DNA from: Candidatus Moraniibacteriota bacterium
GTDB taxonomy: Bacteria; Patescibacteriota; Minisyncoccia; Moranbacterales; UBA2206
Assembly (NCBI GenBank): GCA_026396175.1
Contig: JAPLXG010000006.1
Coordinates: forward strand, 2,895 to 66,894
Length of the DNA: 64,000 nucleotides
Direction: 5' to 3'
Below, one piece after another: positions 2,223 to 59,040 of this stretch. Position 1 is the stretch's first letter, and every line of letters begins with the position of its first letter. The translations under genes were made by a program, and so were the position numbers. The notes below the pieces were generated by a model, which was not told where the DNA came from, searched no databases, and worked only from the letters and a program-made list of their open reading frames with translations.

Positions 2223-3839
2223 ATGAAAAAATTAGCGGAATTTATCGAGACTATTTTGGAAAAAAAGGTGGAGCCGATCTTTTGGTGCTTGACCTTTTTT
2301 GGGATTATTGAGGTACGGCTATACCTGGATAAATTCATCGCAAAATCCAGTTCCCCTTTGTTTGATTTGGTAGTGGACATCCACAATTTGCTCTTCTTTT
2401 TTCTCACAATCGCGCTAGTTTGGCTCATTTTGTGTGGCGTGCTCAAGAAAAATCCGTTTGAGCTGGCGAGTTTTATGCTTTGGGTGGCGCTGGCTATCAT
2501 CTTCCCGCCCATTTTTGATCTCCTGAAAACCGGCAGCGAAGTTTTTTGGAGCTTCTATCTGATCAGTGCGCCAAGTGATTTGATTTGGCAATACGGCACT
2601 ATTTTTGGTCATTTGCCTTCTGGGGTGGTTTATTTCGGCACTAAGATAGTTTTTGTCATCGGCGTGATATTACTCACCGGTCTGGTATACATAAAAACCA
2701 AAAAGTTTTCAAAAACTATTTTTACTGCTATCGGAACATATTCCGCGTTGTTTTTGATGGCGGCGTTTCCTTCGCTGTTTTATTATTTTGTCAGAGTCAT
2801 TTTGGGAAAGGCGGTTTTTTCCGTCTATGCCTTTGAGGTGATTCAATTTTTCGCCAAGTCAAGAATTTTTGGCATCGAGCTGGCGCCCGTTTTTGCTTTG
2901 CCCTATAACTTAAATTTAATTTATTTCCCGCTTTGCCTTGTCATCCTGGGCTATTTTTTCTGGAAGTCAGAGCCGAAAATGTTTCGAGCGGCCGTTCATA
3001 ATTTTCGTTATCCGCAAGTCATTTTTCACACAGGGCTCTTGTTTTTAGGCCTAGGCGTTGGTTTTTGGGAATATCAGGAAAATTTTGAGCTGAATTTGTT
3101 TTCCCTCTCGGCGGTTTTTTGTGTTCTTCTCAGCGTTCTTTTGGCTTGGGAAGCGTCAGTGGTAGTGAACGATATTCTTGATTATCAGGTGGACGCCGTT
3201 TCCAATCCGGAGCGGCCACTACAAAAAGGCATTTTTACGACTAGTCAATACGCGCAGTTTGGGGCGATTATGTTTTTTCTTTCAATCGTTGGCGCCGGAA
3301 TGGTAAATTACAAATTTGGTATTTTGCTTTTCATATATCAAGTTTTAGCTTGGTTCTACTCAGCCGAGCCTTTTCGCCTGAAGCGTTTTGTGCCAATCGC
3401 GTCAATCCTCAGCGCGGTGACGCTGCTCACGGTCTTTTTTTCCGGCTTCATTTTTTTCTCGCCCGAACAAAATCTGGAACGTCTTTCCTGGCGAATCATT
3501 TTTCTCCTGCTGATTACCTACACAGTTTCTTTGCCCATCAAAGATTTCAAAGACATTGAAGGCGACAAAAAAGACGGCGTGCGCACGATCCCGGTAATTT
3601 TTGGCGAAGAAAAAGGCCACCTCATAGTGGCTTCCGGCATTTTTCTGTCCTACGTGCTCAGCGTTTTTTTTATCAATGAATTTAGACTTTTTTGGTGGGC
3701 GATTCTTTTTGGCTCACTTTCTTTTTTGGTAGTGACCAACAAAAAAATCCACCCCAGACGTGTCTTTTGGTGGATTCTTCCACTAGTCACAATCTACGGC
3801 CTCATCGCGGTGAAGGTGGTTTTTGAGTTGACTTTTTAG
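2223..3839 (+). CDS. UbiA-family prenyltransferase fused to an N-terminal polytopic membrane domain
   Basis: 538 aa, very hydrophobic; C-terminal half carries NDILDYQVDAVSNPERP (NDxxDxxxD) and DIEGDKKDGVRT (DxxxD) UbiA Asp-rich motifs. Confidence 0.65.
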   Translation: MKKLAEFIETILEKKVEPIFWCLTFFGIIEVRLYLDKFIAKSSSPLFDLVVDIHNLLFFFLTIALVWLILCGVLKKNPFELASFMLWVALAIIFPPIFDLLKTGSEVFWSFYLISAPSDLIWQYGTIFGHLPSGVVYFGTKIVFVIGVILLTGLVYIKTKKFSKTIFTAIGTYSALFLMAAFPSLFYYFVRVILGKAVFSVYAFEVIQFFAKSRIFGIELAPVFALPYNLNLIYFPLCLVILGYFFWKSEPKMFRAAVHNFRYPQVIFHTGLLFLGLGVGFWEYQENFELNLFSLSAVFCVLLSVLLAWEASVVVNDILDYQVDAVSNPERPLQKGIFTTSQYAQFGAIMFFLSIVGAGMVNYKFGILLFIYQVLAWFYSAEPFRLKRFVPIASILSAVTLLTVFFSGFIFFSPEQNLERLSWRIIFLLLITYTVSLPIKDFKDIEGDKKDGVRTIPVIFGEEKGHLIVASGIFLSYVLSVFFINEFRLFWWAILFGSLSFLVVTNKKIHPRRVFWWILPLVTIYGLIAVKVVFELTF

Positions 3840-3920
3840 GGGATTTGTGCGAGGATGGAAAGTCGAAAGAGGCTAAGATAAATAATTAAACTTGTAACTT
3901 AAAAATTTGGGAGGTGAAAT

Positions 3921-4250: not shown

Positions 4251-4429
4251 CTATTAGTTTAAGTCTCCATCTTGTGAACTATCTCACTGTTGGCTCATAT
4301 CTCCGATATGAAGCATTCACTTCTAACGCACCTTATAGCAAAAGGGCAACTTATAAATTAAGTTGCCCTTTTCCATTTGTCTCGAACTATGATTTTTATG
4401 ATTGAATGATTAGCGGGATTAAAAACAAA

Positions 4430-4470
4430 TGTCATCCTGAGCGCAGCGCAGCGGAGTCGAAGGATCTGCT
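4430..4470. repeat. Family A MITE-like palindromic element (TGTCATCCTGAGCG...CGCTCAGGATGACA), half copy
   Basis: Left arm only, fused to a family B element. Confidence 0.6.
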
Positions 4471-4495
4471 TTGTATTATTCAGAGCTTTATTTAT

Positions 4496-4660
4496 ATCTC
4501 CTTCGCCCTTCGGGAGAAGGTGGCCGAAGGCCGGATGAGGGCAAGGGTAATATAAAATAGAGATTAATATAAATAAGAATGATTAGTGGAGTATCAACAC
4601 CCTTGCCCTCACCTGTCACGTGCTCGTGACATCCTCTCCCGGAGGGCGAGGAAGGATGCT
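4496..4660. repeat. Family B composite palindromic repeat (CTTCGCCCTTCGGGAGAAGGTGGCC .. CCGGATGAGGGCAAGGG // CCCTTGCCCTCACCTGTCACG .. GACATCCTCTCCCGGAGGGCGAGG)
   Basis: Two half-elements in inverted orientation around an AT-rich spacer. Confidence 0.7.
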
Positions 4661-6522: not shown

Positions 6523-6529
6523 CTATATT

Positions 6530-6700
6530 TATATCCCCTTCGCCCTTCGGGAGAAGGTGGCCCGCCGCGGCGGGCCGGATGAGGGCAAGGGCTTTATATT
6601 AAGAAAATACTAAATTAGCAAAGTTTATTCTTAGTTTATGACCCTTGCCCTCACCTGTCACGTGCTCGTGACATCCTCTCCCGGAGGGCGAGGAGGAATC
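6530..6700. repeat. Family B composite palindromic repeat
   Basis: Near-identical arms to the 4496-4660 copy. Confidence 0.7.
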
Positions 6701-9106: not shown

Positions 9107-9232
9107 AGTTGTTAGTTTAGTTGGTTAGTTTCCTTGCTGCTCTATTTTAGCAAAAATGCAGGAGGTTGTCTATTTTTAATTTTTTAGGCAGGCTCGTGTT
9201 TGTGATGGAAAAGTCCCTATTATGTCATTCTG

Positions 9233-9399
9233 AGCGAAGCGGAGCGAAGTCGAAGAATCTGCCATGGGTTATCATAAGCTTTACTATATTACATAAAACT
9301 TTCGGTAGTGGATAGTAGATCCTTGTGCCACCGCTAAAGCTACGGCGACACGCGATCGACTGCGTCCGTCCGCCAGCTGGCGGATCGCTCAGGATGATA
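9233..9399. repeat. Family A MITE-like palindromic element
   Basis: Terminal inverted repeats TGTCATTCTGAGCGAAGCGGAGCGAAGTCGAAGAATCTGC / GATCGCTCAGGATGATA; long imperfect hairpin. Confidence 0.7.
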
Positions 9400-11735: not shown

Positions 11736-11932
11736 TTTTTTATTTATCCCCCACCACTTTTTCGCTCGCGTTTGCGATGTGGCTGAGGAATGTTTTTTAT
11801 TAAGCTATTTATAGAACATCAAAGCAGGTTTATCAAATAAAATTCAAAAGCGAAAAAGTGGTGGGGGATAAAAAAATAGAAGCGGATTTTCTCCGCTTCT
11901 ATTATAAAACACAATTCGATTTTTGACCAATT

Positions 11933-15887: not shown

Positions 15888-16060
15888 TGTTATCCTGAGC
15901 GAAGTCTGTTTCGTTAAGCCGGCGAACGGACGCAGTCGAAGCCTGTCTGCCGGTAGGCAGGGATCTGCCAACCACTATCACAAACTTTCTGTGATATAGC
16001 AAGACTTACGATAACCCATAGCAGATTCTTCGACTCCACTGCGTTACGCTCAGAATGACA
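15888..16060. repeat. Family A MITE-like palindromic element with nested CTGCCGGTAGGCAGG palindrome
   Basis: TGTTATCCTGAGCGAAG ... CGCTCAGAATGACA; internal TATCACA/TGTGATA and CTGCCGGTAGGCAG palindromes. Confidence 0.7.
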
Positions 16061-23661: not shown

Positions 23662-23670
23662 GATTTTTTT

Positions 23671-23738
23671 GTGGGCGTGAGAGGACTCGAACCTCTGAAA
23701 CCTCTACAATGTCAATGTAGCGCTCTAACTTCACCCCA
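23671..23738 (-). pseudogene. tRNA-Val(GAC)-like partial tandem copy, probable pseudogene
   Basis: Shares the 27-nt anticodon arm (AGAGCGCTACATTGACATTGTAGAGG) and T-loop with the neighbouring tRNA-Val, but the D-arm is deleted and the acceptor strands cannot pair canonically. Confidence 0.4.
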
Positions 23739-23757
23739 CACCATTTTTTTAAAACTG

Positions 23758-23831
23758 TGGGTCTGTCCAGACTCGAACTGGAGACCTCTACAATGTCAAT
23801 GTAGCGCTCTAACCAACTGAGCTACAGACCC
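23758..23831 (-). tRNA. tRNA-Val (anticodon GAC)
   Basis: Clean cloverleaf GGGTCTG..CAGACCC, anticodon loop TTGACAT. Confidence 0.85.
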
Positions 23832-23875
23832 AAAAAATGGTGTGGGGCAAGACTGAGCTACACGCCCGATATTAT

Positions 23876-24115
23876 TTATTTCCCCTTCTCCCTCCGGGAG
23901 AAGGTGGCTGAAAGCCGGATGAGGGTTCTTTCAATAGTTGACCATCTACTCATTTATAACAACATTTTCCTTTTTATCAACGTCCCTTCCCTCACCTGTC
24001 ACGAGTACGTGACATCCTCTCCCTAAGGGAGAAGAGGCATTGAAAAAACTGTTCCGTAGCCTCACCTGTCCTTCGGACATCCTCTCCCGAGGGGAGAGGA
24101 GGATATCTCGCGAGA
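23876..24115. repeat. Family B composite palindromic repeat (diverged, with an extra arm)
   Basis: GGGAGAAGGTGGCTGAAAGCCGGATGAGGG ... CCCTCACCTGTCACGAGTACGTGACATCCTCTCCC ... CCTCACCTGTCCTTCGGACATCCTCTCCCGAGGGGAGAGGAGG. Confidence 0.6.
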
Positions 24116-25163: not shown

Positions 25164-25303
25164 AACGTTATTCGCTTCACTGTTATTCGCTTCGCGAACC
25201 GGCGCTACGAATGCCGGACATACGAATTGAATCAATACTTTTAAATTCTATACAATAGGGATTACTCTTTTGTAAATTTTCTAGCTTGCTTTAAAAAATA
25301 GAT

Positions 25304-25442
25304 GTCATCCTGAGCGTAGCGTAGCGGAGTCGAAGGATCTGCCTTAGGTTATCGTTGGCGTTATTATAAATCGCAAAAATTATGGATTATCGAGAGCAGA
25401 TCCTTCGACTGCGTCCGAGTACGGACTTCGCTCAGGATGACA
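25304..25442. repeat. Family A MITE-like palindromic element
   Basis: TGTCATCCTGAGCGTAGCGTAGCGGAGTCGAAGGATCTGCC ... GCAGATCCTTCGACTGCGTCC...CTTCGCTCAGGATGACA. Confidence 0.75.
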
Positions 25443-25449
25443 ATCTATA

Positions 25450-27405
25450 TTAGCTTGTTTTTACTTCAATTGTCTCGGTTTTTTCTTCTGCAGTTTCTGT
25501 GACTGCTTCAACCGGTTCTACTATAACAGCTTCACCCCCGCCTGCAACGCTATGCGTAGCATTGCGGGCAGGCTCGTTCTTCTTTGCTGGCGCAATCCCC
25601 ATAATTTCATTAAACTCAGCTTGTTCAATTGTTTCTTTTTCTAAAAGGACATTGGAGATTTTATCCAGCAGATCCTTTTTGTCAATAAGAATTTTTTCCG
25701 CCACCTTATAGGCATCAGCGATGAACTTAGTGACTTGATTGTCGATTTCTCTGGCGGTTTCTTCGGAATAATTTTTTTCTTCGTGCATTTCTTTGCCCAA
25801 AAAGACCATTTCTTCTTTATGTCCGAAAGTGCGTGGTCCCAAATCGCTCATACCATAGCGCGTGACCAGGTTTCTGGCAATCGCTGTTGCTCGCTCCAGG
25901 TCATTGGAAGCGCCAGTAGTGATGTCGCCAAAAGTCAACCTTTCACTGAGATATCCGCCCAAAAAGACGGAAAGCTCGTCGATGAAATAATTGCGTGAGT
26001 GGAGCGTCTTATCTTTAGTTGGCGCATTTAAGGTATATCCTCCAGCATTACCACGAGAAATGATCGAGATTTTTTGCACTGGATCGGCGTGTTTCAGGGT
26101 GGATGCGATAAGGGCGTGACCAGCTTCGTGGTAAGCGATGATTTTCTTTTCATCTTCGTCAATACGACGGCTTTTTCTTTCCGGCCCAAGAATAACCTTT
26201 TCGATTGATTCAGCGAGTTCGTTCATTCCGATAGTTTTTTTGCCACGTCTTGCGGAAAGAATCGCGGCTTCATTGAGCAAGTTGGCAAGATCAGCTCCCG
26301 AAAAGCCTGGTGTTCTTTGAGCAATCACGCGCAAATCAACATCTTTGACCAATGGTTTATTTTTGGAATGAATTTTGAGGATTGCTGAGCGTTCTTCGAT
26401 ATCAGGCAAATCCATTACCACTCGGCGATCAAATCGGCCCGGGCGAAGCAGGGCCGGGTCAAGTACATCGGGACGATTGGTTGCGGCAATCACGATTACA
26501 TTAGTATTAGTATCGAAACCATCCATCTCCACTAGAATTTGATTGAGAGTTTGTTCTCGTTCGTCGTGTCCTCCGCCCAGTCCCGCTCCGCGGTGTCGTC
26601 CAACTGCGTCAATCTCATCAATAAAAACAATGGCGGGCGAATTTTTCTTGGCTTGCTTGAAAAGATCACGCACACGCGATGCGCCAACTCCCACGAACAT
26701 TTCCACGAATTCTGAGCCAGAAATATTGAAAAATGGCACATTCGCCTCCCCTGCTACCGCTTTGGCGATTAGAGTCTTACCTGTTCCTGGAGAACCCAAA
26801 AGTAAAACGCCTTTGGGAATTTTTGCGCCAAGACTCAAGAATTTCTTAGGAGTTTTGAGAAATTCCACAATTTCATAGAGTTCTTCCTTGGCTTCCTTGG
26901 CTCCCGCAACATCATTGAAAACGACACGATTTTTTTTATCCTTCGGGTCAGAAACGCGCGCCTTGGACATTCCAAAGGACAACGCTTGATTATTCCCTCT
27001 TTGCGCTTGGCGCAACATAAACCAAATAAATCCGGCAATCAGCAGGAACGGCAAAAGGAAAGGCAAAATTGCTCCCAGCCAAAGACTGCTTGAGCTTTCT
27101 CCTTTAACTACAATGTTAACGCTATCAAGTTTTGCCGGGTCTACGCCGTAATTTTTGAAAGTTTCAGTTAGTCCCGCCTCTTTTTCTTTCAGTGACTTTT
27201 CGATAGTTCCGTCAGTCATAATAACATTCAAATCGCTATCAGTAACATCAATTTCCTTAACCTTTTGGTCATTAATTTGCGCGACCAGTGTGGAAAGGGA
27301 AATATCGGCCGGTTTCTTTTCTGGATTGTTGAGAAGAATCAGAATGCCCGAGAGGAAAACAAAGAAAAATAAGACATAGCTAATATTGCGCAAGAGATTT
27401 TTCAT
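25450..27405 (-). CDS. ftsH: ATP-dependent zinc metalloprotease FtsH
   Basis: Walker A GSPGTGKT; HEAGHA zinc site; C-terminal tail carries the palindrome-derived [13 protein letters not shown]. Confidence 0.9.
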
Positions 27406-30512: not shown

Positions 30513-30574
30513 GTAATTAAATTTTTGCAGCTGACATCATGGCCGCAAGATAATGATTATGAATGTCTAAATAG

Positions 30575-30735
30575 AAATATCCTCCTCTCCCTTAGGGAGA
30601 GGATGTCCGAAGGACAGGTGAGGGAAAGGGCTTTGTGCTACTGGAGAGCTATATTCTTCGTAGTATGTCCACTCCCTCATCCGGCCTTTGGCCACCTTCT
30701 CCCTAATGGAGAAGGGGAAATAAATTATAAAAAAA
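30575..30735. repeat. Family B composite palindromic repeat
   Basis: CTCTCCCTTAGGGAGAGGATGTCCGAAGGACAGGTGAGGGAAAGGG ... CCCTCATCCGGCCTTTGGCCACCTTCTCCCTAATGGAGAAGGGG. Confidence 0.7.
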
Positions 30736-31220: not shown

Positions 31221-33278
31221 ATGGCAAATTTAACTGAAAAATCGCAAGAAATCTGGGAAAAAATCAAAAAACAGCCAAAAGACATTTGGTTTTTCTATTT
31301 GTTTTTATTGACTTTTACGCTTGGGGTAAGAAAAGTAATATTATACTTTCCCTTGAAAGGTGCCTTTAACGAATACACCGGCGCATACGTTTATGCTTCT
31401 GATATATTCTTGTGTCTTACGATCATAGCCTGGGTCGTATCTATATTATACAACAAAATAGCATTATCGTCAAGTAACAGCGAAGCTGTTTCTGAAGTTA
31501 TCCACAGGATGGATGGTGGCGAAAAAGAGGAATTTAAAGTTAGCCATAAGTTATCCACAGGAAAATTTGCTTATTTTAAAGCATTTTTTTCCAGGATGTG
31601 GAAAATGTTCCACGTGGAACAATTTTACAATCAGAATTCAAGAAAATGTTCCACCCTCCTGCGCCAAGGCTTCGGCGGGCAAGCGTGGAACATTTTGAGT
31701 GGATTGGGTACTATTCCCCTGCTTTTGGTCATTTGGTCATTCATATCGGTCTTTTGGTCAGAAAATCAAGTAATTAGTGTTTGTAGATCTATTAAGTTTT
31801 TTGAACTGTATCTTCTGTTTATTTATATATCCATCAGATTCGTGCCATACTGCTTACTCAATTGTTCCACGTGGAACAATCTGCAATCTGGAAATGTTCC
31901 ACCCTCCTGCGCCGAGGCTTCGGCGGGCAGGCGTGGAACATTTTCAAATACAGAGGATGGTGGTGATGCTAAAATGTTCCACGTGGAACAATTTAGCTAC
32001 GTTTTGTCGAAAATGGCTAAATATTTCCGCGCAATCTTGTTGGGGCTGGTAGTAATTGCGCTGTTTGACCACTATTTGTGGGATATTTGGCAAGGTCAGG
32101 TCTTGTTTTGGCTGGTTTGTGGCGTTTTGGCAGGAGTTAGTTTTGGCGAGCAGTTTAATCTGAAAAAATGTTCCACGTGGAACATTTTCGAGAGTACTAT
32201 CAGTGAAATTGTTCCACGTGGAACAATTTATGCGGGGCGTCTGTTTTTCGGCATAATTATGCTTCTTGGTGTGACACAGTCTCTGATCGGAATTGCTCAA
32301 TTTATTGTTCAGCACTCAATCGGGCTATTTTGGCTCAAAGAAAGCCTAATTGGGCAAAGTATTCCCGGAGTGGCAAAGATTATCGCTAATCATCATGTTC
32401 TTATCCGTTCCTATGGCCTCTTTCCTCATCCAAATATCCTGGGGGGATTTTTGTTTTTTTCTATCATGATTACGCTTCTGTATAGAAAAATGTTCCACCC
32501 CGAAGAATCTGAAAATGTTCCACGTGGAACATTTTCAAATCACGGGACAGGCGCGGAACATACCGAGGAGAAAAATAATGTGAATTGTTCCACGTGGAAC
32601 AATTTTAGGCAAGTATGGAAAAATGTTCCACGTGGAACATTTTGGATATTACTAAAAGAAAAAGTGCTTATTATGGGCAATGTTATTAATTTAATATTGC
32701 TGATTCAGATATTTGGAATTCTTCTTTCCTTTTCTAAGTCAGCCGTTCTTACCTTACTCATTGCGCTTACTTATATAAATGTTCCACGTGGAACATTTTG
32801 GGGTAAGCGTGGAAAATCGTTTCACCCCGAAAAATCTGAAATTGTTCCACGTGGAACAATTTCAGATCACGGGGCAGGCGTGGAGCGATTTAGGATATTA
32901 CTTGGTTTGGGATTGGCCGTATTGGCAGGACTGTTTTTTCTTAGAGTCGAATTTTATGCCTTATTTATGAAGTCGCTTGCAGAAAGAGGGTTGTATTTGT
33001 CTATCTCCGAGCGGATAATTACAGATAATCCGATTATTGGGGTTGGCACTGGCCAGTTCATCGTGGCCGCAGAGAGGTTATTCCCAAATCTTGAGATCTG
33101 GCAATATCAGCCAGTGCATAATGTTTTTCTTTTAATTTGGTCAGAATGGGGGATTGTCGGGTTGGTTTTGTTTATTGTGTTTTTGTGGAAATTGTTCCAC
33201 GTGGAACAATTCTGTGAAAAGCCTCTTCTCCCTCAGGGAGAGGACCTGCCCGAAATGCAAATCGTTGCAGGCGGGTGA
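31221..33278 (+). CDS. O-antigen ligase/Wzy_C-like polytopic membrane protein interrupted by at least 14 in-frame 20-24 bp palindromes
   Basis: Wzy_C-like block PVHNVFLLIWSEWGIVGL and GVGTGQF; the ORF stays open through every ATGTTCCACGTGGAACAT copy, read as MFHVEQF / CSTWNNF / NVPRGTF depending on phase. Confidence 0.6.
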   Translation: MANLTEKSQEIWEKIKKQPKDIWFFYLFLLTFTLGVRKVILYFPLKGAFNEYTGAYVYASDIFLCLTIIAWVVSILYNKIALSSSNSEAVSEVIHRMDGGEKEEFKVSHKLSTGKFAYFKAFFSRMWKMFHVEQFYNQNSRKCSTLLRQGFGGQAWNILSGLGTIPLLLVIWSFISVFWSENQVISVCRSIKFFELYLLFIYISIRFVPYCLLNCSTWNNLQSGNVPPSCAEASAGRRGTFSNTEDGGDAKMFHVEQFSYVLSKMAKYFRAILLGLVVIALFDHYLWDIWQGQVLFWLVCGVLAGVSFGEQFNLKKCSTWNIFESTISEIVPRGTIYAGRLFFGIIMLLGVTQSLIGIAQFIVQHSIGLFWLKESLIGQSIPGVAKIIANHHVLIRSYGLFPHPNILGGFLFFSIMITLLYRKMFHPEESENVPRGTFSNHGTGAEHTEEKNNVNCSTWNNFRQVWKNVPRGTFWILLKEKVLIMGNVINLILLIQIFGILLSFSKSAVLTLLIALTYINVPRGTFWGKRGKSFHPEKSEIVPRGTISDHGAGVERFRILLGLGLAVLAGLFFLRVEFYALFMKSLAERGLYLSISERIITDNPIIGVGTGQFIVAAERLFPNLEIWQYQPVHNVFLLIWSEWGIVGLVLFIVFLWKLFHVEQFCEKPLLPQGEDLPEMQIVAGG
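31600..33210. repeat. Family G: at least 14 copies of the perfect palindrome (A)ATGTTCCACGTGGAACAT(T) / ATTGTTCCACGTGGAACAAT, some nested in a larger palindrome TGTTCCACCCCGAA..AATCTGAAA[core]TTTCA..ATCACGGGGCAGGCGTGGA
   Basis: Copies at ~31603, 31640-31695 (split), 31860, 31890-31945 (split), 31973, 32165, 32205, 32490-32570 (nested), 32583, 32615, 32777, 32808-32890 (nested), 33185. Confidence 0.8.
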
Positions 33279-37448: not shown

Positions 37449-37461
37449 TGGGGTTTTTGCA

Positions 37462-37625
37462 ATATCTCCTCCTCTCCCTTAGGGAGAGGATGTCCGAAGG
37501 ACAGGTGAGGGAAAGGGCTATGAGTTAGCACTAAACTAATTTAAAAATAAGTTTTTTGTAACAGAAAGGCTTCTCCCTCATCCGGCCTTCGGCCACCTTC
37601 TCCCTAATGGAGAAGGGGATTTAAC
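37462..37625. repeat. Family B composite palindromic repeat
   Basis: Near-identical to the 30575-30735 copy. Confidence 0.7.
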
Positions 37626-42830: not shown

Positions 42831-42874
42831 GTACGAATATACGAATTTAGGGAAAGCGATATAAAAAATATTTA

Positions 42875-43013
42875 TGTCATTCTGAGCGGAGTGTAGCGAA
42901 GTCGAAGAATCTGCCTCAGGTTATTGCAAGTTTTGTAATAAATCGTAAAAACTAGGATTATCACAAGCAGATCCTTCGACTGCGTCCGGGTACGGACTTC
43001 GCTCAGGATGACA
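42875..43013. repeat. Family A MITE-like palindromic element, itself bracketed by TACGAATATACGAAT / ATTCGTATATTCG inverted repeats
   Basis: Same arms as the 25304 copy; outer inverted repeat at 42818-42850 / 43083-43128. Confidence 0.75.
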
Positions 43014-43137
43014 ATTTTTTTATCCAAATGCATTTTACTAAATAATAATTTTTTAATAAGTATGAATGACGTTTTCTCTGTGAATTACGATTTATTATTC
43101 GTATATTCGTAAAGATTCGTAATTCGTAGAGAAACAC

Positions 43138-47826: not shown

Positions 47827-47840
47827 GTTTCTTATTTTTT

Positions 47841-47981
47841 TGTCATTCTGAGCGAAGCGGAGCGAAGTCGAAGAATCTGCTATAGGTTATTGTGAGCTTT
47901 GCAATAAATTGTAAAGATTAGGGTTATTGTAAGCAGATCCTTCGGCTGCGTCCTGAGTACAGGACTTCGCTCAGGATGACA
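47841..47981. repeat. Family A MITE-like palindromic element
   Basis: TGTCATTCTGAGCGAAGCGGAGCGAAGTCGAAGAATCTGC ... CTTCGCTCAGGATGACA. Confidence 0.75.
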
Positions 47982-48008
47982 CAATTTTTTATTATTAATT
48001 TTAAAAAT

Positions 48009-50334: not shown

Positions 50335-50424
50335 ATAGTTTCTTATGGCCTTCGTGGTGCCATGCCTCGTCGGCAGGCCCCACACCATTTCACGTTTGAT
50401 TCCAAGTTATTTTTAAAATATATT

Positions 50425-50507: not shown

Positions 50508-50603
50508 CACAGAAATGGTGTGGGGCAAATATTCAACATATAATAAATAGAAGTTTACTTAGTTTTTTGTTACATGTTTTATGCTATATGTTGTATGACC
50601 CAG

Positions 50604-51071: not shown

Positions 51072-51143
51072 GCGGGTGTCGTATAGTGGCTATTATATCA
51101 GCCTTCCAAGCTGAGGAGGGGGGTTCGATTCCCCCTACCCGCT
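51072..51143 (+). tRNA. tRNA-Gly (anticodon UCC)
   Basis: Near-identical architecture to E. coli tRNA-Gly(UCC): GCGGGTG..GTATAGTGGCTATTA..CTTCCAA..GGTTCGATTCC. Confidence 0.85.
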
Positions 51144-51154
51144 CAGATAAAATA

Positions 51155-51318: not shown

Positions 51319-51340
51319 GGATTCCCCCTACCCGCTCCAA
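51319..51340 (+). repeat. duplicated 3' end of tRNA-Gly (T-loop + acceptor + CCA), part of a ~160-bp tandem duplication
   Basis: GGATTCCCCCTACCCGCTCCA repeats tRNA-Gly 51123-51143; each copy is followed by a terminator and the direct repeat GGGGAA(A)TCGAAGGGTATTT (51225 and 51385). Confidence 0.6.
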
Positions 51341-53442: not shown

Positions 53443-55437
53443 ATGAAAAAACGAACAGGTTGGTACTATTTGAAAGAGGTTATTTTGGGTGTCATTGGCG
53501 CTCTTTTTATGGTCTTGTTGGGAGCAGCTATTGCCACTTTTTTTGTCTATAAGAATCACACGCCGAGTGTGGCGGAGATTTCCAGTTACCGTCCGCCACA
53601 AACTTCTATTATTTATGATCGCACGGGAAAAATTGTGCTCTATAAGATCCACGGCGAAGAAAATCGCAAAGTGCTCGCGCATGATGAAATTCCGAATGTT
53701 GTGCGGATTGCGACCGTGGCGACGGAGGATAAAATTTTTTACAGCCATTTTGGAGTCGATTTCTTTTCCATTCTGCGCGCAATGAAAGTTAATGTCGAAA
53801 ATGGCGATATGTCTCAAGGCGGGTCCACGATAACCCAACAGCTGGCGCGTAACGTATATCTCAATCGCGAAAAAACTTTGCGGAGAAAAATTATGGAGAC
53901 ACTGATTGCTTTCAAGATTGAGAAAAATTTTACCAAAGATCAGATTCTAGATCGCTACCTCAATCAAGTGCCCTATGGGTCCAATGCTTATGGCATCGAA
54001 GCGGCGGCGGAAATATTTTTTGGGAAAAGCGCAAAAGAACTCACGCTCGATGAGGCAGTATTTTTAGCGGCACTGCCGAAAGCCCCGACTTATTATTCGC
54101 CATATGGGGATAACGCAGACAAACTGGTGGATCGTTATCAGGGCATTTTAGATCAAATGGCGCAGTTGAAATTGGCCTCGCCAGATGAAATTCAGTCGGC
54201 TAAAAAAATAAATATTTTAGCCAAAGTCCAGCCGTTTCGCGAACCGATCGTAGCGCCGCATTTTGTTTTCTACGTAACAGAACAACTGGAAGCAAAATAT
54301 GGACGAGACTTTTTGGAGCGCGGGGGACTGAAAATAATTACGACACTTGACTGCGGTTTACAAAAAATTGGAGAAAAAGTTGTGGCAGATGGAGGGGCAA
54401 GAAATGTCGGTTATGGCGCGAATAATGCGGCGCTTGTCGCAACGGATCCTAAAACGGGAGATGTTCTCGCGATGGTGGGCAGTCGGGATTTTTTCAACCC
54501 GGCAATTGATGGACAGGTCAATGTGGCAATTCGACTGCGTCAACCAGGGTCATCGTTCAAACCGATTGTCTATGCGACGGCATTTGAAAAAGGTTATCAG
54601 CCGGAAACCCTAATTGCCGATGAGCCGACTAATTTCGGTCCGGATGGTGGCGGAATCAGTTATATCCCCCAAAACTATGACGGAAAATTTCACGGCGTAC
54701 TTCCAATGCGAAAAACACTCGCGATGTCACTTAATATTCCAGCCATTAAAACGCTAGCACTGGTGGGAATAGATAGCGCGATTGACATGGCGCATCGTCT
54801 GGGAATCACAACACTAAATAATCGGAAGCGCTATGGTTTGTCGATGGCAATCGGTGGCGCGGAAGTAAAACTAATTGATATGGCGAGTGCTTTTGGGGTT
54901 TTTGCTACTGAAGGGAAAAGATTTCAAGCCCATTCTATCTTAGAAATCGTCGACAATAGCGGTCAGTCCTATTTTGACAAAACTCAAGGCGAACAGGTTA
55001 TTGATGTCCAAGTAGCACGGAAAATCAACTCTATTCTTTCTGATAATAATGCTCGTTCGGCAATTTTTGGACCAAATAGTCCACTCTATATTCCTGGCAG
55101 AACAGTCGCGGCGAAAACCGGAACATCCCAAGAATTCCGTGATGCTTGGACGGTTGGCTACACGCCATCAATCGCGGTGGGAGTTTGGGCGGGGAATAAT
55201 GATTCGCGTCCGATGCACGCAGGGTCAGATGGCGTATTTGTCGCCGCTCCAATATGGCGCAGCTTTATGGACGCTGTACTTTCGCGTTATCCCAACGAAG
55301 GTTTTGTGGGGTATCAAGCTGTGGCTGGTGATGAAAAAGTGGCCTTAAGTCAAGATCAGATTGATAAACTCACTCAAGATCAAAAAGACGCGGAGAAAGC
55401 GCAAAAGAAGGCGGATAAAAAGAAGAAGAAGCATTAG
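53443..55437 (+). CDS. mrcA: class A penicillin-binding protein (GT51 glycosyltransferase plus transpeptidase)
   Basis: EDKIFYSHFGVD, GGSTITQQLARN, SSFKP and KTGTS motifs; start at ATG 53443 with AGGAG RBS. Confidence 0.85.
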   Translation: MKKRTGWYYLKEVILGVIGALFMVLLGAAIATFFVYKNHTPSVAEISSYRPPQTSIIYDRTGKIVLYKIHGEENRKVLAHDEIPNVVRIATVATEDKIFYSHFGVDFFSILRAMKVNVENGDMSQGGSTITQQLARNVYLNREKTLRRKIMETLIAFKIEKNFTKDQILDRYLNQVPYGSNAYGIEAAAEIFFGKSAKELTLDEAVFLAALPKAPTYYSPYGDNADKLVDRYQGILDQMAQLKLASPDEIQSAKKINILAKVQPFREPIVAPHFVFYVTEQLEAKYGRDFLERGGLKIITTLDCGLQKIGEKVVADGGARNVGYGANNAALVATDPKTGDVLAMVGSRDFFNPAIDGQVNVAIRLRQPGSSFKPIVYATAFEKGYQPETLIADEPTNFGPDGGGISYIPQNYDGKFHGVLPMRKTLAMSLNIPAIKTLALVGIDSAIDMAHRLGITTLNNRKRYGLSMAIGGAEVKLIDMASAFGVFATEGKRFQAHSILEIVDNSGQSYFDKTQGEQVIDVQVARKINSILSDNNARSAIFGPNSPLYIPGRTVAAKTGTSQEFRDAWTVGYTPSIAVGVWAGNNDSRPMHAGSDGVFVAAPIWRSFMDAVLSRYPNEGFVGYQAVAGDEKVALSQDQIDKLTQDQKDAEKAQKKADKKKKKH

Positions 55438-55446
55438 AAAATTTAC

Positions 55447-55474
55447 GCAGGAGTGGGTTTGTAACCCGCTCCTC
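55447..55474 (+). terminator. terminator hairpin after the PBP gene (GGGTTTGTAACCC family; related copies at 14761-14795 and 55566-55585)
   Basis: GCAGGAGTGGGTTTGTAACCCGCTCCTC; additional AAAGCCCTTAGCGGGCTTTTTT at 55606-55630. Confidence 0.6.
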
Positions 55475-55700
55475 TTATTCTACTAGTCATAAAACAATAC
55501 GATGTTGCCATTTAAACGCTAACGACCAAGCAAATAGTGAGTAAAATGTGCGAAACGGGTTGCAAACCCGTTCCTGCTTTAATTTTTCTTAGCCCAAAGC
55601 CCTTAGCGGGCTTTTTTGATTTTCAGGGCTTATTTAAGCCGAAAGTGGCGAAATGACTAAAATCGAATGGCTTATTTGAGCCAAAATAGAGCTAGAACGC

Positions 55701-55729
55701 TTGACTTCTGGCTGGTTATTTGCTACACT
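55701..55729 (+). promoter_or_regulatory. sigma70-like promoter TTGACT-17-TACACT for the 3D-domain gene, leaving a ~150-nt structured leader
   Basis: TTGACT 55701-55706, TACACT 55724-55729. Confidence 0.5.
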
Positions 55730-55744
55730 ATTTGGTCAATCTGA

Positions 55745-55889
55745 AAAGGGGTCCGAGCCCCCCACTAACCCAATTTTAGGGGTTAGCGTGGAAAATAAAT
55801 GGCCTAAAGAATGGCATATAACCTGGACAAGTCGAGTTTGGGTTAGAAGGGGCAAGCCTTGGTTGACGCTTAACAATTAAAGTTTATGT
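55745..55889 (+). promoter_or_regulatory. structured 5' leader, candidate riboswitch (possibly c-di-AMP/ydaO-like)
   Basis: GGGGUCCGAGCCCCCC, ACUAACCC..GGGGUUAG stem, upstream of a cell-wall hydrolase-type gene. Confidence 0.3.
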
Positions 55890-56441
55890 ATGCGTATTAG
55901 TACGAAATTGGCTGTACTTGCCGGTTTCTCTCTTGCTCTAAGTTTTGGGGTAATGACAGGAACAGCGAGCGCCGACGAGTCTAATCAAACAAAAATAAAC
56001 TTCAATATTGCCGAAAATTTACTCTCTCTGAGCCAAGCAGAAGTTTGCATGGCAGCAGAAATCACTCCTGACGCTCCGGCCGAAGAGGTGAAAAAAGAGG
56101 AAACTCCAACAATCGAAACTAAAAAAGTACTTAAAAATAGCAATCTTCCCGAAGGTAAATTTATCATCAATGCTTCAGCGTACACAGCTTCTGCTGATGA
56201 ATGTGGCAAGAGCGATGGAATTACCGCGTCAGGTGCGAAAGTTCGTGAAAACGAAACAATCGCTTGTCCCAAGAGCTTTGCTTTTGGAACAAAAGTGAAT
56301 ATCGAAGGTTACGGAACCTATATTTGTCAGGATCGCGGAGGTGCGATCAAGGGAAATAAGATCGATATCTATGTGAAAACAAAAACCGAAGCATTTGCTT
56401 TCGGTAGACGAAATTTAGTCGCTCAGATTGTGACTGAATAG
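55890..56441 (+). CDS. secreted 3D-domain (MltA-like) cell-wall protein
   Basis: signal peptide; C-terminal 3D domain. Confidence 0.6.
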   Translation: MRISTKLAVLAGFSLALSFGVMTGTASADESNQTKINFNIAENLLSLSQAEVCMAAEITPDAPAEEVKKEETPTIETKKVLKNSNLPEGKFIINASAYTASADECGKSDGITASGAKVRENETIACPKSFAFGTKVNIEGYGTYICQDRGGAIKGNKIDIYVKTKTEAFAFGRRNLVAQIVTE

Positions 56442-56538
56442 TCAAAAAGAGCACTCCGAGCAATCGGGGTGCTTTTTTGACTTTGATTGACTTTGCGACT
56501 CTAGCTTGGTAGTATTTATCTTGTAGTCGTTTATTGCA

Positions 56539-56571
56539 AATTGGTCCGGTGGCCGAGCAGTTAGGCAAGGG
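56539..56571 (+). pseudogene. 5' fragment of tRNA-Cys (acceptor to anticodon loop), displaced copy
   Basis: 33 nt GGTCCGGTGGCCGAGCAGTTAGGCAAGGGTCTG match positions 1-34 of the complete tRNA-Cys at 56871 with 3 substitutions, then diverge into the GIY-YIG gene. Confidence 0.65.
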
Positions 56572-56615
56572 TCTGTCTGGCTACGCCAGATCTCGCGTAG
56601 CGAGACAAAACTTCT

Positions 56616-56861
56616 ATGGAATATTTCACATATGTGCTAGTAAGCGCAAAAAATGGCGATTTATACGTTGGAAGCACAGCGAACATTGAAAAGCGGCTTG
56701 GCTTGCATAACAAAGGAAAAGTTAGATCTACGAAGCCGAATCGCCCGTGGAAGCTATTGGAAGCTCATTCTTTTAATATAAGGAGTGAAGCATTTAGGTA
56801 CGAGAAATTTTTAAAGACACACCAACAAAAAGAGTTGATAAAAGGGAGACATAATTTATAA
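56616..56861 (+). CDS. GIY-YIG nuclease-family protein
   Basis: YVLVSAKNGDLYVGSTANIEKRLGLHN GIY-YIG core; lies between a 5' tRNA-Cys fragment and the complete tRNA-Cys. Confidence 0.7.
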   Translation: MEYFTYVLVSAKNGDLYVGSTANIEKRLGLHNKGKVRSTKPNRPWKLLEAHSFNIRSEAFRYEKFLKTHQQKELIKGRHNL

Positions 56862-56870
56862 TGGTAAAAT

Positions 56871-56941
56871 GGTCCGATGGCCGAGTGGTTAGGCAAGGGT
56901 CTGCAAAACCCTGTACGGCGGTTCAATTCCGCCTCGGACCT
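56871..56941 (+). tRNA. tRNA-Cys (anticodon GCA)
   Basis: GGTCCGA acceptor, loop CTGCAAA, T-arm GGCGGTTCAATTCCGCC. Confidence 0.85.
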
Positions 56942-56953
56942 CAAATGTATTTT

Positions 56954-57036
56954 GGGCGAGTGGTGGAATGGTATACACTCAACACTTAAAATGTTGCGGA
57001 GCTTGCTCCATGAGGGTTCGAGTCCCTCCTCGCCCA
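56954..57036 (+). tRNA. tRNA-Leu (anticodon UAA), type II
   Basis: Loop CTTAAAA, long variable arm. Confidence 0.8.
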
Positions 57037-57075
57037 CAGTGAATTTAGTATCAAAAAAATCGCCGATGAGGCGAT

Positions 57076-57666
57076 TTAATTTTTCTCTTCTTGCCCAATT
57101 TTTTTTATTATTTTCGGAATCCGTTTGAAATCTTTGATGAGTGTTTCGCGCATTGAGCCATTGTAAAGCGCGGCGGCGGGATGGTAGAGTGTATAAAAAA
57201 CCTGGCGGCCTACGCCTTCGATTTCTCGGCGCATGGCCTTACCGTGAATTTCGGAAATTTTGAAACCAGGCAAAAACCTTTCCATCGAATGTCGGCCGAG
57301 TGTGACGATTAGCTTAGGCTTAATAATTTTAATTTGCTCCAAAAGCCATGGCCAACAAGTGGCGATTTCTTCCGGGAGTGGGTCGCGATTACTGGGTGGG
57401 CGACATTTGCAGACGTTGGCGATGTAAACTTCTTCGCGCTTGAGACTGATTATCCCAAGCATTTCATCTAGAAATTTTCCGGCCGCGCCGACAAAAGGCA
57501 CGCCGGTTGCGTCTTCTTTTTGTCCCGGCGCTTCACCAATAAAAAGAATTTTAGCGTCCTCTGAGCCTGCGCCGGGGACGACTTGGGTGCAACCTTTGCG
57601 CAGAGCGCATTTGGTGCAGGCGAGCATTTCGGCGTTTAGTTTTTCGAGGTGGGATTGGTTAGACAT
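57076..57666 (-). CDS. uracil-DNA glycosylase, family 4
   Basis: GEAPGQKED motif and Fe-S cysteines. Confidence 0.8.
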   Translation of the reverse strand: MSNQSHLEKLNAEMLACTKCALRKGCTQVVPGAGSEDAKILFIGEAPGQKEDATGVPFVGAAGKFLDEMLGIISLKREEVYIANVCKCRPPSNRDPLPEEIATCWPWLLEQIKIIKPKLIVTLGRHSMERFLPGFKISEIHGKAMRREIEGVGRQVFYTLYHPAAALYNGSMRETLIKDFKRIPKIIKKIGQEEKN

Positions 57667-57790
57667 CGGTTTAATTTCTAATTTTCAATTTCTAATTTCT
57701 AAACAATTTTCAATGAAATAATTTCTAAATTTTGAAAATTGTAACATTGGAAATTGTTTGAAAATTGAAAATTGTGAATTGAAAATTATT
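57665..57790. repeat. Family C low-complexity AATTTCTAATTTTCAATTT tract (intergenic)
   Basis: ATTTCTAATTTTCAATTTCTAATTTCTAAA ... TTGAAAATTGTGAATTGAAAATT. Confidence 0.65.
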
Positions 57791-58289
57791 TCAGATCGTG
57801 TACTCTGATTAATTTAAAACCATCATTCTTCGTATTCCATACCGCAAAAGTCGGAGGATAGATTTCCCCGGCGACGTTGCCAGGATTGAGCATTTTGCAA
57901 TTGCCAATTATTTCCTCCCAAGGCTTGTGCGTGTGGCCATAAAAAACAAAAGCATATTTTCCCGTTTCCGCTAATTTTCTCGCTTCTCGAGGAAAATGGA
58001 CGAAGGCAATAAGCTTTCCATCAATCTTAGTCTCGCCAAAATTTTTGAATAAAAAAGTATTGCGATATTTTTCAACCGAATCAAGCTCGCGCAGTTCCGT
58101 GTAATCAGCATTGCCGAAAGTGTAATAAATAACGCCTGCAAAATTATCGTTCATGAGATCCAGAACCTCTCTTGATGCGAGATCGCCACAGCAAATAAGC
58201 GTGGTGATTTTTTGTTCGGCGCAATAACGCAAAACTTTATCCAAATTGACTTCGTTGTTGTGAATGTCTGAGGTGATGGCGATTTGCAT
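57786..58289 (-). CDS. metallophosphoesterase (YfcE/MJ0936 family)
   Basis: ITSDIHNN ... GHTH; start at ATG ~58289. Confidence 0.7.
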   Translation of the reverse strand: MQIAITSDIHNNEVNLDKVLRYCAEQKITTLICCGDLASREVLDLMNDNFAGVIYYTFGNADYTELRELDSVEKYRNTFLFKNFGETKIDGKLIAFVHFPREARKLAETGKYAFVFYGHTHKPWEEIIGNCKMLNPGNVAGEIYPPTFAVWNTKNDGFKLIRVHDLK

Positions 58290-58293
58290 ATGT

Positions 58294-59040
58294 TTATTTT
58301 CTATTATCCAACATTTTCCAGTTAAGTTCAAAGATGGTTTTTAGGGTGGTGTAAATCTTTTCGCTTTCAATGATAAGACCTAGACCTTCTTTGAAGGACA
58401 TAATGCCGATTTTTCTTTTGCCGTAGAGGTTTATCTCGACCTCTAGAAATAATCCAGTTGAATCATATAGGCGAGTTTCACGCAAATATTTCTTGTCCTC
58501 AGCTTGAATTTTCTGGACAACGCCGAGATTTTGTCCGATAGCACGCATCCAAATTTTTTTCTCAATTCTTTTTTTGAGATAATAATCCCACATATAGCCT
58601 TCGTCGAAATATTTGAAAACATCAGTTGTGCCCCACATCAGGATTTCTTGGTTGGGGTAATTCAAGGTGTCTTGGTAGACATTTTTAATTCCCTCGCTAC
58701 CTTCAAAATACTTCACATCCGGTTTTTTGTCGATTCCGCTGGCCATTGAGAGCAGTTGTGGAAGAATTCCTTCAAGCACGGTTTTCTTTTCTTCCAGCTG
58801 ACTTTCGAGTATTCTGGGATCTTCAGCATAATAGAGCGTGCGTTTTTTTCTTTTAGTTGTTCCAATGAGACCTTTAGCTTTCAACGATTCAATTACATCA
58901 TAAACAGTGGTGCGTTTGATCTTGGATTTGCGGGAAATCTGTTCCACTGTTGTTTCGCCCAACTCCAAAAGCTCGACATAAACATCAGCTTCACGCTCTG
59001 AGAGGTTAAGTTTTTCCAATTGTTTTTTTAGAATAGCCAT
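58294..59040 (-). CDS. TrmB-family HTH transcriptional regulator (second paralog)
   Basis: wHTH (EREADVYVELLELG ... KRTTVYDVIESL) plus TrmB C-terminal domain; start at ATG ~59040. Confidence 0.7.
   Translation of the reverse strand: MAILKKQLEKLNLSEREADVYVELLELGETTVEQISRKSKIKRTTVYDVIESLKAKGLIGTTKRKKRTLYYAEDPRILESQLEEKKTVLEGILPQLLSMASGIDKKPDVKYFEGSEGIKNVYQDTLNYPNQEILMWGTTDVFKYFDEGYMWDYYLKKRIEKKIWMRAIGQNLGVVQKIQAEDKKYLRETRLYDSTGLFLEVEINLYGKRKIGIMSFKEGLGLIIESEKIYTTLKTIFELNWKMLDNRK

Follow-up and report, generated by a model that had tools for sequence, protein, structure and literature searches.

How does a bacterial tRNA gene come to be preceded by a broken copy of its own 5' half, with a small nuclease gene lodged between the two? 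The question arises at the tRNA-Cys locus of a Candidatus Moraniibacteriota bacterium (GenBank assembly GCA_026396175.1), on a stretch of 64,000 nucleotides (nt) from contig JAPLXG010000006.1, positions 2,895 to 66,894 of the forward strand. This whole stretch is called the window, and coordinates without a locus number refer to it. The displaced half, the nuclease gene and the complete tRNA-Cys are together called the cassette. A first-pass annotation of the same DNA had taken them for a minimal mobile element that carries a copy of the tRNA 5' half, inserts at the anticodon loop and displaces the resident half. The reading preferred here, with a probability of roughly 0.6, is that a very small selfish cassette targets the anticodon loop of tRNA-Cys and compensates the damage by bringing tRNA-Cys sequence with it. 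That the design recurs speaks for a family of very small mobile elements that target tRNA genes and have apparently gone undescribed; a full-text literature search found no published description of this architecture.

In the window the insert measures 328 bp and lies inside a tRNA-Cys gene. A repeat search finds a direct repeat of 43 nt at 56533-56575 and 56861-56903 (86% identity, spacing 328 nt), with a 34-nt core, 56542-56575 against 56870-56903, that is recovered by blastn-short (91% identity, E = 1.5e-6 within the window). The left-hand copy is a displaced pseudo-half, tRNA-Cys positions 1-34 (56543..56575, + strand). It is 33 nt long, G18 being lost, and has three mismatches to the intact gene: G7 for A7, and CA for TG in the D-loop. 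Both searches bear out the 33-nt copy with three substitutions of the first-pass annotation, which had placed its end at 56571, about 4 nt too far left, and had let it end exactly in the anticodon loop. The tRNA sequence instead resumes beyond a 30-nt insertion with CAAAAC, positions 35-40 (56606..56611, +), a segment that follows the insertion in nearly all Patescibacteria loci. The start codon of the 81-residue GIY-YIG nuclease gene (56616..56861, +) lies 4 nt further on. The intact tRNA-Cys(GCA) (56871..56942, +; ARAGORN and Rfam, 63.7 bits) is the sole functional copy at the locus and stands where it was first reported. When 56543-56575 is fused to the 3' part of the intact gene (56904-56945), ARAGORN again recognizes a valid tRNA-Cys. 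The GIY-YIG gene is the only open reading frame (ORF) between the repeats, and no integrase or other recombinase is found there, in keeping with the earlier view that the insert is not integrase-driven. The 64-kb window holds no second GIY-YIG gene and no further copy of the cassette.

The 30-nt insertion was formerly described as a hairpin-rich spacer. The hairpins are real, but they form a conserved, dyad-symmetric unit exactly at G34^C35, beyond which tRNA homology continues. This double hairpin, or doublet (56576..56605, +), consists of TCTGGCTACGCCAGA followed by TCTCGCGTAGCGAGA, that is, of two 6-bp hairpins with 3-nt loops, TCTGGC-TAC-GCCAGA and TCTCGC-GTA-GCGAGA, with dyad symmetry around the GA/TC centre. 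The region is a 34-nt near-palindrome (DNA fold z = -3.55). Across 19 loci, 98.7% of helix cells are paired and 8 of the 12 pairs have changed on both sides; with slid partners as a control, pairing drops to 13-52%. The stems fit TCYSSC...GSSRGA and the loops TNY (first hairpin) and RNA (second), so that a doublet reads alike on both strands. Doublets occur in both orientations, that of the window being the reverse complement of the type in locus L003 (L-numbers denote loci), and their flanks are always [G/C] on the left and [C/A]AA on the right. The 30-mer of the window recurs identically in L022, though the two proteins are only 57% identical. In many loci the upstream copy is also broken at 12^13 or 21^22, by further doublets or single palindromes. 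In the close relative L081 the D-loop contains the 20-nt palindrome CCTGCCTGCCGGCAGGCAGG, which is absent from the pseudo-half of the window, and six dispersed copies of this palindrome family occur elsewhere in the window. Solo 30-nt doublets are present in apparent protein-coding DNA of L006 (1544-1573 and 3919-3948), where, being 30 nt long, they would keep the reading frame and add 10 codons. Overall, doublets gave 18 matches in 267 kb, mostly cassette doublets of loci whose cassette is not at the assumed position, and none in 131 kb of cassette-free contigs; these are few events for comparing density between contigs with and without a cassette. The doublet type of the window (TCTGGC/TCTCGC) has no other copy in the 64 kb.

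The first-pass annotation had named empty sites in related genomes as the telling comparison, and they turned up when metagenomes were scanned for intact tRNA-Cys like that of the window. Two syntenic loci lack both the ORF and the upstream fragment. In L105 the order is 3D-domain gene (44% identity), tRNA-Cys, tRNA-Leu and UDG (52% identity), and in L124 a 3D-domain gene (70% identity) is followed by tRNA-Cys. Three further relatives, L084, L128 and L107, are likewise without ORF and fragment. The cassette is present in the relatives L081, L082 and L083. A single conserved site is therefore polymorphic for presence and absence: filled in the window, L081, L082 and L083, and empty in L105 and L124. 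Ahead of the pseudo-half, the promoter shares homology with its counterpart in L081 and looks like that of the uninterrupted tRNA gene of L124.

The same design recurs across the phylum. Among the 80 best genomic loci for the protein, 73 have a tRNA on the same strand within 200 nt, and four of the seven exceptions lie at contig ends. In all 53 cases in which this neighbour is tRNA-Cys, it stands directly downstream of the ORF. These tRNA-Cys loci span many Patescibacteria classes, usually with tRNA-Leu(TAA) next, and the same order is kept in about 50 Patescibacteria species. The complete layout (tRNA-Cys 1-34, a double hairpin of 30-31 nt, CAAAAC, one to a few nucleotides, ATG) is present in about 45 independent loci, which excludes chance for both the fragment and its insertion. 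Upstream copies match the local tRNA-Cys at 28.0 of 32 positions and the tRNA-Cys of other loci at 19.2 of 32. Their likeness to the local tRNA runs from full identity to clearly different alleles, and in many loci they are truncated or carry deletions. The ORF typically starts with an ATG a few nucleotides after position 40-46 of the upstream copy, and in 35 of the 53 loci it continues into the intact tRNA, where the D-loop supplies its TAA stop. The C-terminus is then translated tRNA 5' end, for example GLVAKW before the stop. L083 has, ahead of its pseudo-half, another and more degenerate 5' fragment resembling tRNA-Cys (about 3860-3905), which suggests repeated events at one locus. Contigs L206-L209 end at the cassette, as though its repeats break assemblies.

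Downstream sequence in other loci indicates what the window has lost. Many Patescibacteria loci carry tRNA-Cys 3' fragments beyond the intact tRNA-Cys, composed of positions from about 22 to 34, a doublet at G34^C35 and positions 35-76, sometimes with a second doublet in the T-loop; doublets at G34^C35 thus mark both junctions. In five loci (L004, L006, L015, L021, L029) the acceptor heptamer of the upstream copy differs from that of the intact tRNA-Cys, and its exact reverse complement, plus a discriminator, ends the downstream fragment. Foreign heptamers, used as a control, match in 4 of 404 pairs. Outer genes were rebuilt by deleting the sequence between the fragments together with the doublets. 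ARAGORN calls the rebuilt genes of L006, L015, L021 and L029 tRNA-Cys(GCA), that of L021 with a perfect cloverleaf; L004 rebuilt with its matching 3' fragment gives no ARAGORN call and is called only with a different fragment. The outer tRNA-Cys is split at the anticodon by an insert of 403-452 bp (L009, L021, L004; 407 bp for the L021 unit), in which the ORF and then a complete tRNA-Cys of a different allele stand between two doublets. In L004, L009 and L021 each doublet and its tRNA flanks recur almost unchanged at the other junction, as a direct repeat of about 49 nt. As reconstructed from these loci, the full element is about 400-450 bp inserted at the anticodon, and the window, with its left junction alone, would hold a reduced form. 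Between tRNA-Cys and tRNA-Leu the window shows neither a doublet nor a right-hand tRNA-Cys fragment. The earlier idea of an element inserting at the tRNA-Cys anticodon is upheld by this comparison; that it carries merely a 5' half is not, since the fuller form carries a whole tRNA-Cys.

Homologues outside Patescibacteria extend the pattern to other tRNAs. In Ignavibacteria, Bacteroidota, Calditrichota, Margulisiibacteriota and others, the ORF is flanked by two copies of one tRNA, of which the intact one is of isotype Ser, Arg, Val, Gln, Glu, Gly, Ala or Asn. Matched segments of the broken copy are mostly 100% identical to the intact gene and are interrupted by one to three double hairpins of 18-62 nt (TCC...GGA + TCC...GGA) in the anticodon loop, the T-loop or the T-stem/acceptor-stem junction. 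L080 has two tandem units. In L052, L064 and L067, 5' pieces lie upstream, and 3' pieces downstream, of the intact tRNA and ORF. No doublet adjoins the gene in those distant homologues whose intact tRNA immediately precedes the ORF. The cassette family is restricted neither to tRNA-Cys nor to Patescibacteria.

The protein that unites these loci is small and recognizable. The 81-residue GIY-YIG product of the first-pass annotation is confirmed by Pfam (PF01541, E = 6.8e-15, 55.6 bits against a cutoff of 22.6, residues 3-72). An NCBI entry under the name Candidatus Moranbacteria is 100% identical to it. The closest solved proteins by sequence are the UPF0213 proteins BH0048 (1zg2; E = 3.7e-6) and EF2693 (1ywl; E = 1.1e-4), and SLX1 chains match weakly (E = 0.045-0.66). 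The match to TIGR01453 (Seg and group I intron endonucleases) covers the N-terminal 30 residues only and, with 26.1 bits against a cutoff of 56.05, is below threshold. Y17, G19, H31 and E58 are invariant in 27 homologues, and Y6 and R27 nearly so; catalytic roles were assigned from the alignment to 1zg2 and SLX1 and from background on the superfamily. The 81 residues form a bare catalytic core without auxiliary domain or DNA-binding module, and to judge from these matches the cassette protein is a minimal nuclease of Slx1/UPF0213 type. Like UPF0213 and Slx1-like proteins (1zg2, 1ywl) it has the minimal domain, without a C-terminal Asn-containing extension; it differs from UPF0213 proteins in forming a distinct subfamily with the motif HNxGKVxSTK. 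A profile search returned 5,672 clusters (50% identity) at E<=1e-10 among 1.84 billion representatives, and at least 597 loci were found among 185,579 species-representative genomes (one genome per species). Dunin-Horkawicz et al. (2006; PMC1564403) viewed standalone Slx1-like proteins of bacteria as mainly vertically inherited, and noted no link to tRNA genes. Against L081 the ratio of non-synonymous to synonymous substitution rates (dN/dS) of the ORF is 0.105. The low ratio, the conserved catalytic residues and the likeness to Slx1/UPF0213 together indicate an ORF that is functional and under purifying selection. In public gene calls the ORF is often given a start too far upstream, so that it takes in the hairpins and the pseudo-tRNA. 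In P0003 (109 residues), for example, the N-terminal '...GKGLPGCARSRVARQNF' is translated tRNA and doublet sequence, and spurious N-terminal extensions of 20-55 residues are likewise seen in P0005, P0007, P0011 and many profile-search representatives. Many representatives of 100-135 residues probably owe their length to translated pseudo-tRNA and doublet.

A mechanism can be proposed in outline. (i) The full element consists, in order, of a doublet, a short remnant of positions 35-46, the 80-residue GIY-YIG gene, a complete tRNA-Cys, a short remnant of positions from about 22 to 34 and a second doublet. (ii) The Slx1-like nuclease is predicted to make the break at the tRNA gene, cutting its DNA in loops at [G/C]^[C/A]AA; in tRNA-Cys this would be G34^C35. 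Cutting guided by structure would suit an Slx1-like core without a DNA-binding domain. (iii) Repair of the break from a cassette-bearing template would copy in either the doublet alone or the whole cassette. (iv) The element would then lie between G34 and C35, with the resident gene split into a 5' part before it and a 3' part after it. (v) The doublet in the broken copy would block re-cutting. Broken copies carry a doublet at the presumed cut site; the intact tRNA-Cys beside the gene has an unaltered anticodon loop. (vi) The cassette would use the tRNA's own promoter, and the nuclease mRNA would for that reason be the 5' leader of pre-tRNA-Cys. The form in the window would have arisen by loss of the right junction and the resident 3' piece, most simply by recombination between the two 35-76 segments, so as to leave resident positions 1-34, the doublet, positions 35-40, the ORF and a functional tRNA-Cys.

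The surrounding transcription unit can be delimited. On the left, the 3D-domain ORF (55890-56441) ends at an intrinsic-terminator-like hairpin (56445..56478, +) with a 15-bp stem followed by a T run. A promoter-like TTGACT-17-TAGTAT with extended TG follows (56487..56515, +); it is conserved in L081, and a similar motif precedes the uninterrupted tRNA-Cys of L124. This is probably the native tRNA-Cys promoter, now driving pseudo-half, ORF and tRNA-Cys. A second promoter-like site, TTGATA-16-TATAAT (11/12), lies in the 3' end of the ORF, 8 nt before tRNA-Cys (56835..56862, +), and may be a cassette-borne promoter for tRNA-Cys in this lineage. As a general feature such a promoter is rejected: a match of at least 9/12 directly ahead of the tRNA is found only in the window and L081, and anywhere within the 60 nt upstream in 7 of 53 loci. 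The conserved downstream neighbour tRNA-Leu(TAA) (56954..57037, +; ARAGORN and Rfam) is probably co-transcribed with tRNA-Cys, and a bidirectional terminator-like hairpin (57057..57077) closes the tRNA unit and the convergent UDG gene. Two ideas about the transcript were discarded. A tRNA-like fold of the pseudo-half and hairpins is not significant (RNA fold z = -1.7). Pairing of the upstream 5' strand with the 3' end of the intact tRNA, which would cage the mRNA in a tRNA, fails because the two are non-complementary in many loci.

The cassette shares features with several known systems and coincides with none of those compared. One is SegB, whose C-terminal part contains a DNA-binding module. 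SegB of phages T4 and T6 is a free-standing GIY-YIG homing endonuclease (PMC2330249, PMC13096335); it cleaves tRNA genes internally and thereby triggers the duplication, by recombination, of tRNA together with segB, and a C-terminally truncated variant is non-toxic (PMC13096335). In both, a GIY-YIG gene lies among tRNA genes and is statistically associated with tRNAs of many isotypes. The phage protein SegB is the larger of the two, whereas the cassette encodes a bare Slx1/UPF0213 core of 80 residues on bacterial chromosomes, its gene nested in a copy of its own tRNA with double-hairpin junctions. In fungal mitochondria, mobile endonuclease ORFs carry a replacement for the gene end that they disrupt, as in the Allomyces atp6 insert, and short, G+C-rich, mobile double-hairpin elements occur beside such inserts. 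There too a nuclease ORF enters an essential gene and supplies a substitute, leaving the old piece as a pseudo-fragment. Those ORFs are organellar, larger and directed at protein genes; the cassette has a bacterial tRNA target, replaces the whole tRNA and carries its hairpins exactly at the insertion point. Integrase-driven islands and prophages resemble it in their tRNA targets (anticodon loop, T-loop or 3' end), in the flanking direct repeat of a tRNA segment and in restoring the tRNA; the cassette differs in having no recombinase, in its size of 0.3-0.45 kb against kilobases, and in supplying the 5' part or the whole tRNA, not the 3' end. Group I introns in tRNA anticodon loops are frequent in Patescibacteria, sometimes with a homing endonuclease ORF, and the survey describing them makes no mention of tRNA-Cys or GIY-YIG (PMC13011429). 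Despite the shared phylum and anticodon-loop position in a tRNA gene, a group I intron is ruled out here. Rfam searched over 54000-59000 at E<=1 returned only the two tRNAs, with no ribozyme core or other known RNA family, and the insert is followed by a full tRNA, not by a 3' exon alone. Finally, RAYTs are HUH Y1 enzymes whose REPINs are dispersed in hundreds of copies. The resemblance lies in inverted pairs of short palindromic hairpins beside a single-copy, vertically inherited nuclease-type gene; the cassette protein is GIY-YIG, not HUH Y1, and its doublets cluster in tRNA copies at the cassette.

Several observations weigh against a selfish, moving cassette. Between the window and L081 the GIY-YIG gene (78% amino-acid identity; dN 0.12, dS 1.14) has diverged together with its neighbours: the 3D-domain gene (77%; dN 0.13, dS 1.05), PBP1A (84%; dN 0.11, dS 2.64, saturated) and UDG (87%). 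A dS of 1.14 is close to the 1.05 of the neighbouring gene, and purifying selection is host-like. By this co-divergence the cassette is old in this lineage and has long been vertically inherited. No near-identical cassettes were seen in different contexts, and where exactly the same protein occurs in several samples (P0013, P0026) the context is always the same, so that there is no evidence of recent jumps. Protein identity does not follow tRNA-Leu identity (Spearman -0.06), and the neighbour-joining tree on which doublet types were marked is star-like; horizontal transfer is inferred only from nested alleles and patchiness, because the protein tree gives no resolution. The family has one match in 2.9 million viral contigs, and this near absence leaves it without a known vector. 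Two further difficulties concern targeting. An 81-residue domain without a DNA-binding module cannot alone read a long site, and the intact tRNA-Cys has the same anticodon sequence as the presumed target, which raises a problem of self-immunity. Lastly, the window and L081 differ at 3 of the 33 pseudo-half positions and at 2 of the 30 in the doublet, whereas the leader from promoter to pseudo-half is largely scrambled; conservation so far above that of the leader hints at a cis function outside the model. The anticodon-stem base after GGCAA agrees between the copies within a genome and differs between genomes (G in the window, A in L081), from which it follows that these segments are either homogenized against the tRNA or constrained. 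A phage, defence or plasmid origin was also considered and rejected, with the single viral-contig match, no match to PHROG families and only marginal PADLOC matches for the protein.

A more far-reaching reading, tentative and rather doubtful, treats the doublets as the ends of a DNA transposon of a new class, with the 80-residue Slx1-like GIY-YIG protein as its transposase: structure-recognizing, addictive and shedding solo doublets. Such a transposon would recognize loops of the extruded tRNA-gene cloverleaf at [G/C]^[C/A]AA and not a long sequence. It would enter an essential single-copy tRNA gene and become indispensable as the carrier of the only functional copy, and it would shed solo 30-nt doublets, in-frame inserts in protein genes included. 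If true, a transposon of about 0.4 kb would be one of the smallest autonomous mobile elements.

The vertical signal suits another account, which is judged unlikely: a resident, tRNA-linked nuclease, domesticated or housekeeping, that makes SegB-like local duplications, with the tRNA pieces as decaying by-products and no movement between genomes. Co-divergence with flanking genes at dN/dS 0.105, the single copy in the 64-kb window and the near absence from viral contigs all agree with it, as do the duplications that take in the 5' flank and the tandem units of L074, L080, L061 and L050. It has the precedent of SegB and accords with the mainly vertical descent of standalone bacterial Slx1-like proteins (Dunin-Horkawicz et al. 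2006; PMC1564403). What such a nuclease does not readily explain is that outer and inner alleles differ in five loci, with compensated acceptor stems. Differing nested alleles need either import of a foreign tRNA together with the ORF, or very old duplications that are still recognizable. The cassette is, moreover, patchy among close syntenic relatives, and the same G34^C35 junction and doublet types recur across distant classes, the 30-mer being shared with L022 while the proteins are 57% identical.

The doublets themselves invite a third account, in which they are the mobile units, comparable to REPINs, and the GIY-YIG protein is their RAYT-like mobilizer; tRNA loops would be favoured sites, and ORF and tRNA passive passengers. 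Single doublets do occur elsewhere in broken copies (12^13, 21^22, T-loop) and as in-frame 30-nt inserts in coding DNA (L006), in both orientations, with common [G/C] and [C/A]AA flanks and with a presence that varies between close relatives (L081 and the window). The constrained stem motif TCYSSC...GSSRGA with its compensatory changes, and the related hairpin and palindrome families dispersed in the window, also speak for it. The doublet type of the window is nevertheless found nowhere else in the 64 kb, and doublets are rare away from cassettes (the 18 in 267 kb being mostly cassette ones). Distant homologues with the tRNA directly upstream have none next to the gene, and no GIY-YIG transposase is known; the account is considered quite improbable. 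A role at the RNA level, with pseudo-half and hairpins as a regulatory or stabilizing leader of the nuclease mRNA and pre-tRNA, or with hairpin inserts that are spliced in the manner of mini-introns and a protein that acts on RNA, would explain the strong conservation of pseudo-half and doublet relative to the adjacent leader, the compensatory changes in the hairpins and an ORF forming the 5' leader of pre-tRNA-Cys with its stop often inside the tRNA, but it is very improbable given upstream copies that in many loci are truncated or have internal deletions and often have an acceptor strand unable to pair with the local 3' strand, doublets whose orientation does not matter, the presence of an intact tRNA next to nearly every cassette (73 of 80 loci, with four of the seven exceptions at contig ends), a region matching no Rfam family, group I introns included, and the fact that no RNA-cleaving GIY-YIG enzyme is known. 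The selfish cassette that replaces the tRNA it breaks remains the preferred explanation.

Other repeats and tRNA insertions were observed in and around the window. On the minus strand at 23670-23870, the D-loop of one tRNA-Val(GAC), GGGCGTG...CACGCCC, is interrupted by another, complete tRNA-Val(GAC) (23757-23831). The insert of about 124 nt is flanked by a perfect 16-nt inverted repeat, CCCCACACCATTTTTT; its deletion leaves a valid tRNA-Val (ARAGORN), and the whole region folds with z = -7.7. This insertion of one tRNA in another has no ORF; it may be a relative of the tRNA-Cys cassette. On either side of tRNA-Leu(GAG), at 50378-50393 and 50510-50525, stands the same inverted repeat (CCCCACACCATTT), and a related pair, TCCCCCACCACTTTTT, brackets about 90 nt of non-coding DNA at 11747-11762 and 11853-11868. 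These pairs may serve as processing stems or mark where small mobile units end. An exact copy of the final 18 nt of tRNA-Gly(TCC) occurs 176 nt further downstream (51127-51144 and 51320-51337), and hairpin-rich DNA lies between the two, which looks like an att-type scar of a very small or decayed integrated element. Between tRNA-Cys and tRNA-Leu(TAA) of L081, a 156-residue ORF with weak HNH matches (3285-3755) is present that is absent from the window, and a similar ORF start is seen by eye downstream of tRNA-Cys in L084, L009 and L038. The same tRNA cluster would then have received a second insertion of free-standing endonuclease type.

G+C-rich hairpin and palindrome families are dispersed in the intergenic DNA of this genome, which has 42% G+C. 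Hairpin repeats lie at 4421-4657, 6525-6699, 9214-9335, 23872-24105, 25294-25450, 30571-30723, 37458-37624, 42866-43021 and 47832-47989, and palindromes at 15935, 17456, 29042, 30887, 38863 and 62249. Among them are two-hairpin units, TCTCCC...GGGAGA + TGTCC...GGACA, that resemble doublets of cassettes in other genomes, and a 20-nt palindrome, CCTGCCTRCCGGYAGGCAGG, that is also inserted in the pseudo-tRNA of L081 and L063. A dense array of eleven copies of the palindrome (A)TGTTCCACGTGGAACA(T) occupies 1.6 kb at 31597-33211. Between UDG and the next gene (57672-57788) lies a 58-nt A+T-rich imperfect inverted repeat of AATTTCTAATTT-type units, with similar A+T-rich repeats at 5259, 8451, 46915, 62472 and 63576.

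If the preferred reading of a selfish cassette is correct, a protein family annotated only as 'GIY-YIG nuclease family protein' would mark widespread, overlooked miniature selfish elements in bacterial tRNA genes. Their tiny size and structure-directed targeting could interest genome engineers. The cassette would account for the tRNA pseudo-fragments, assembly breaks and mis-called N-terminal extensions around Patescibacteria tRNA-Cys, and it would be a possible source of short in-frame palindromic inserts in proteins. Bacterial Slx1/UPF0213 nucleases would gain a first concrete substrate candidate, tRNA-gene loops and double hairpins. The persistence of the element would illustrate addiction by replacement, in which an essential tRNA gene is broken and the only working copy is supplied by the element that broke it.

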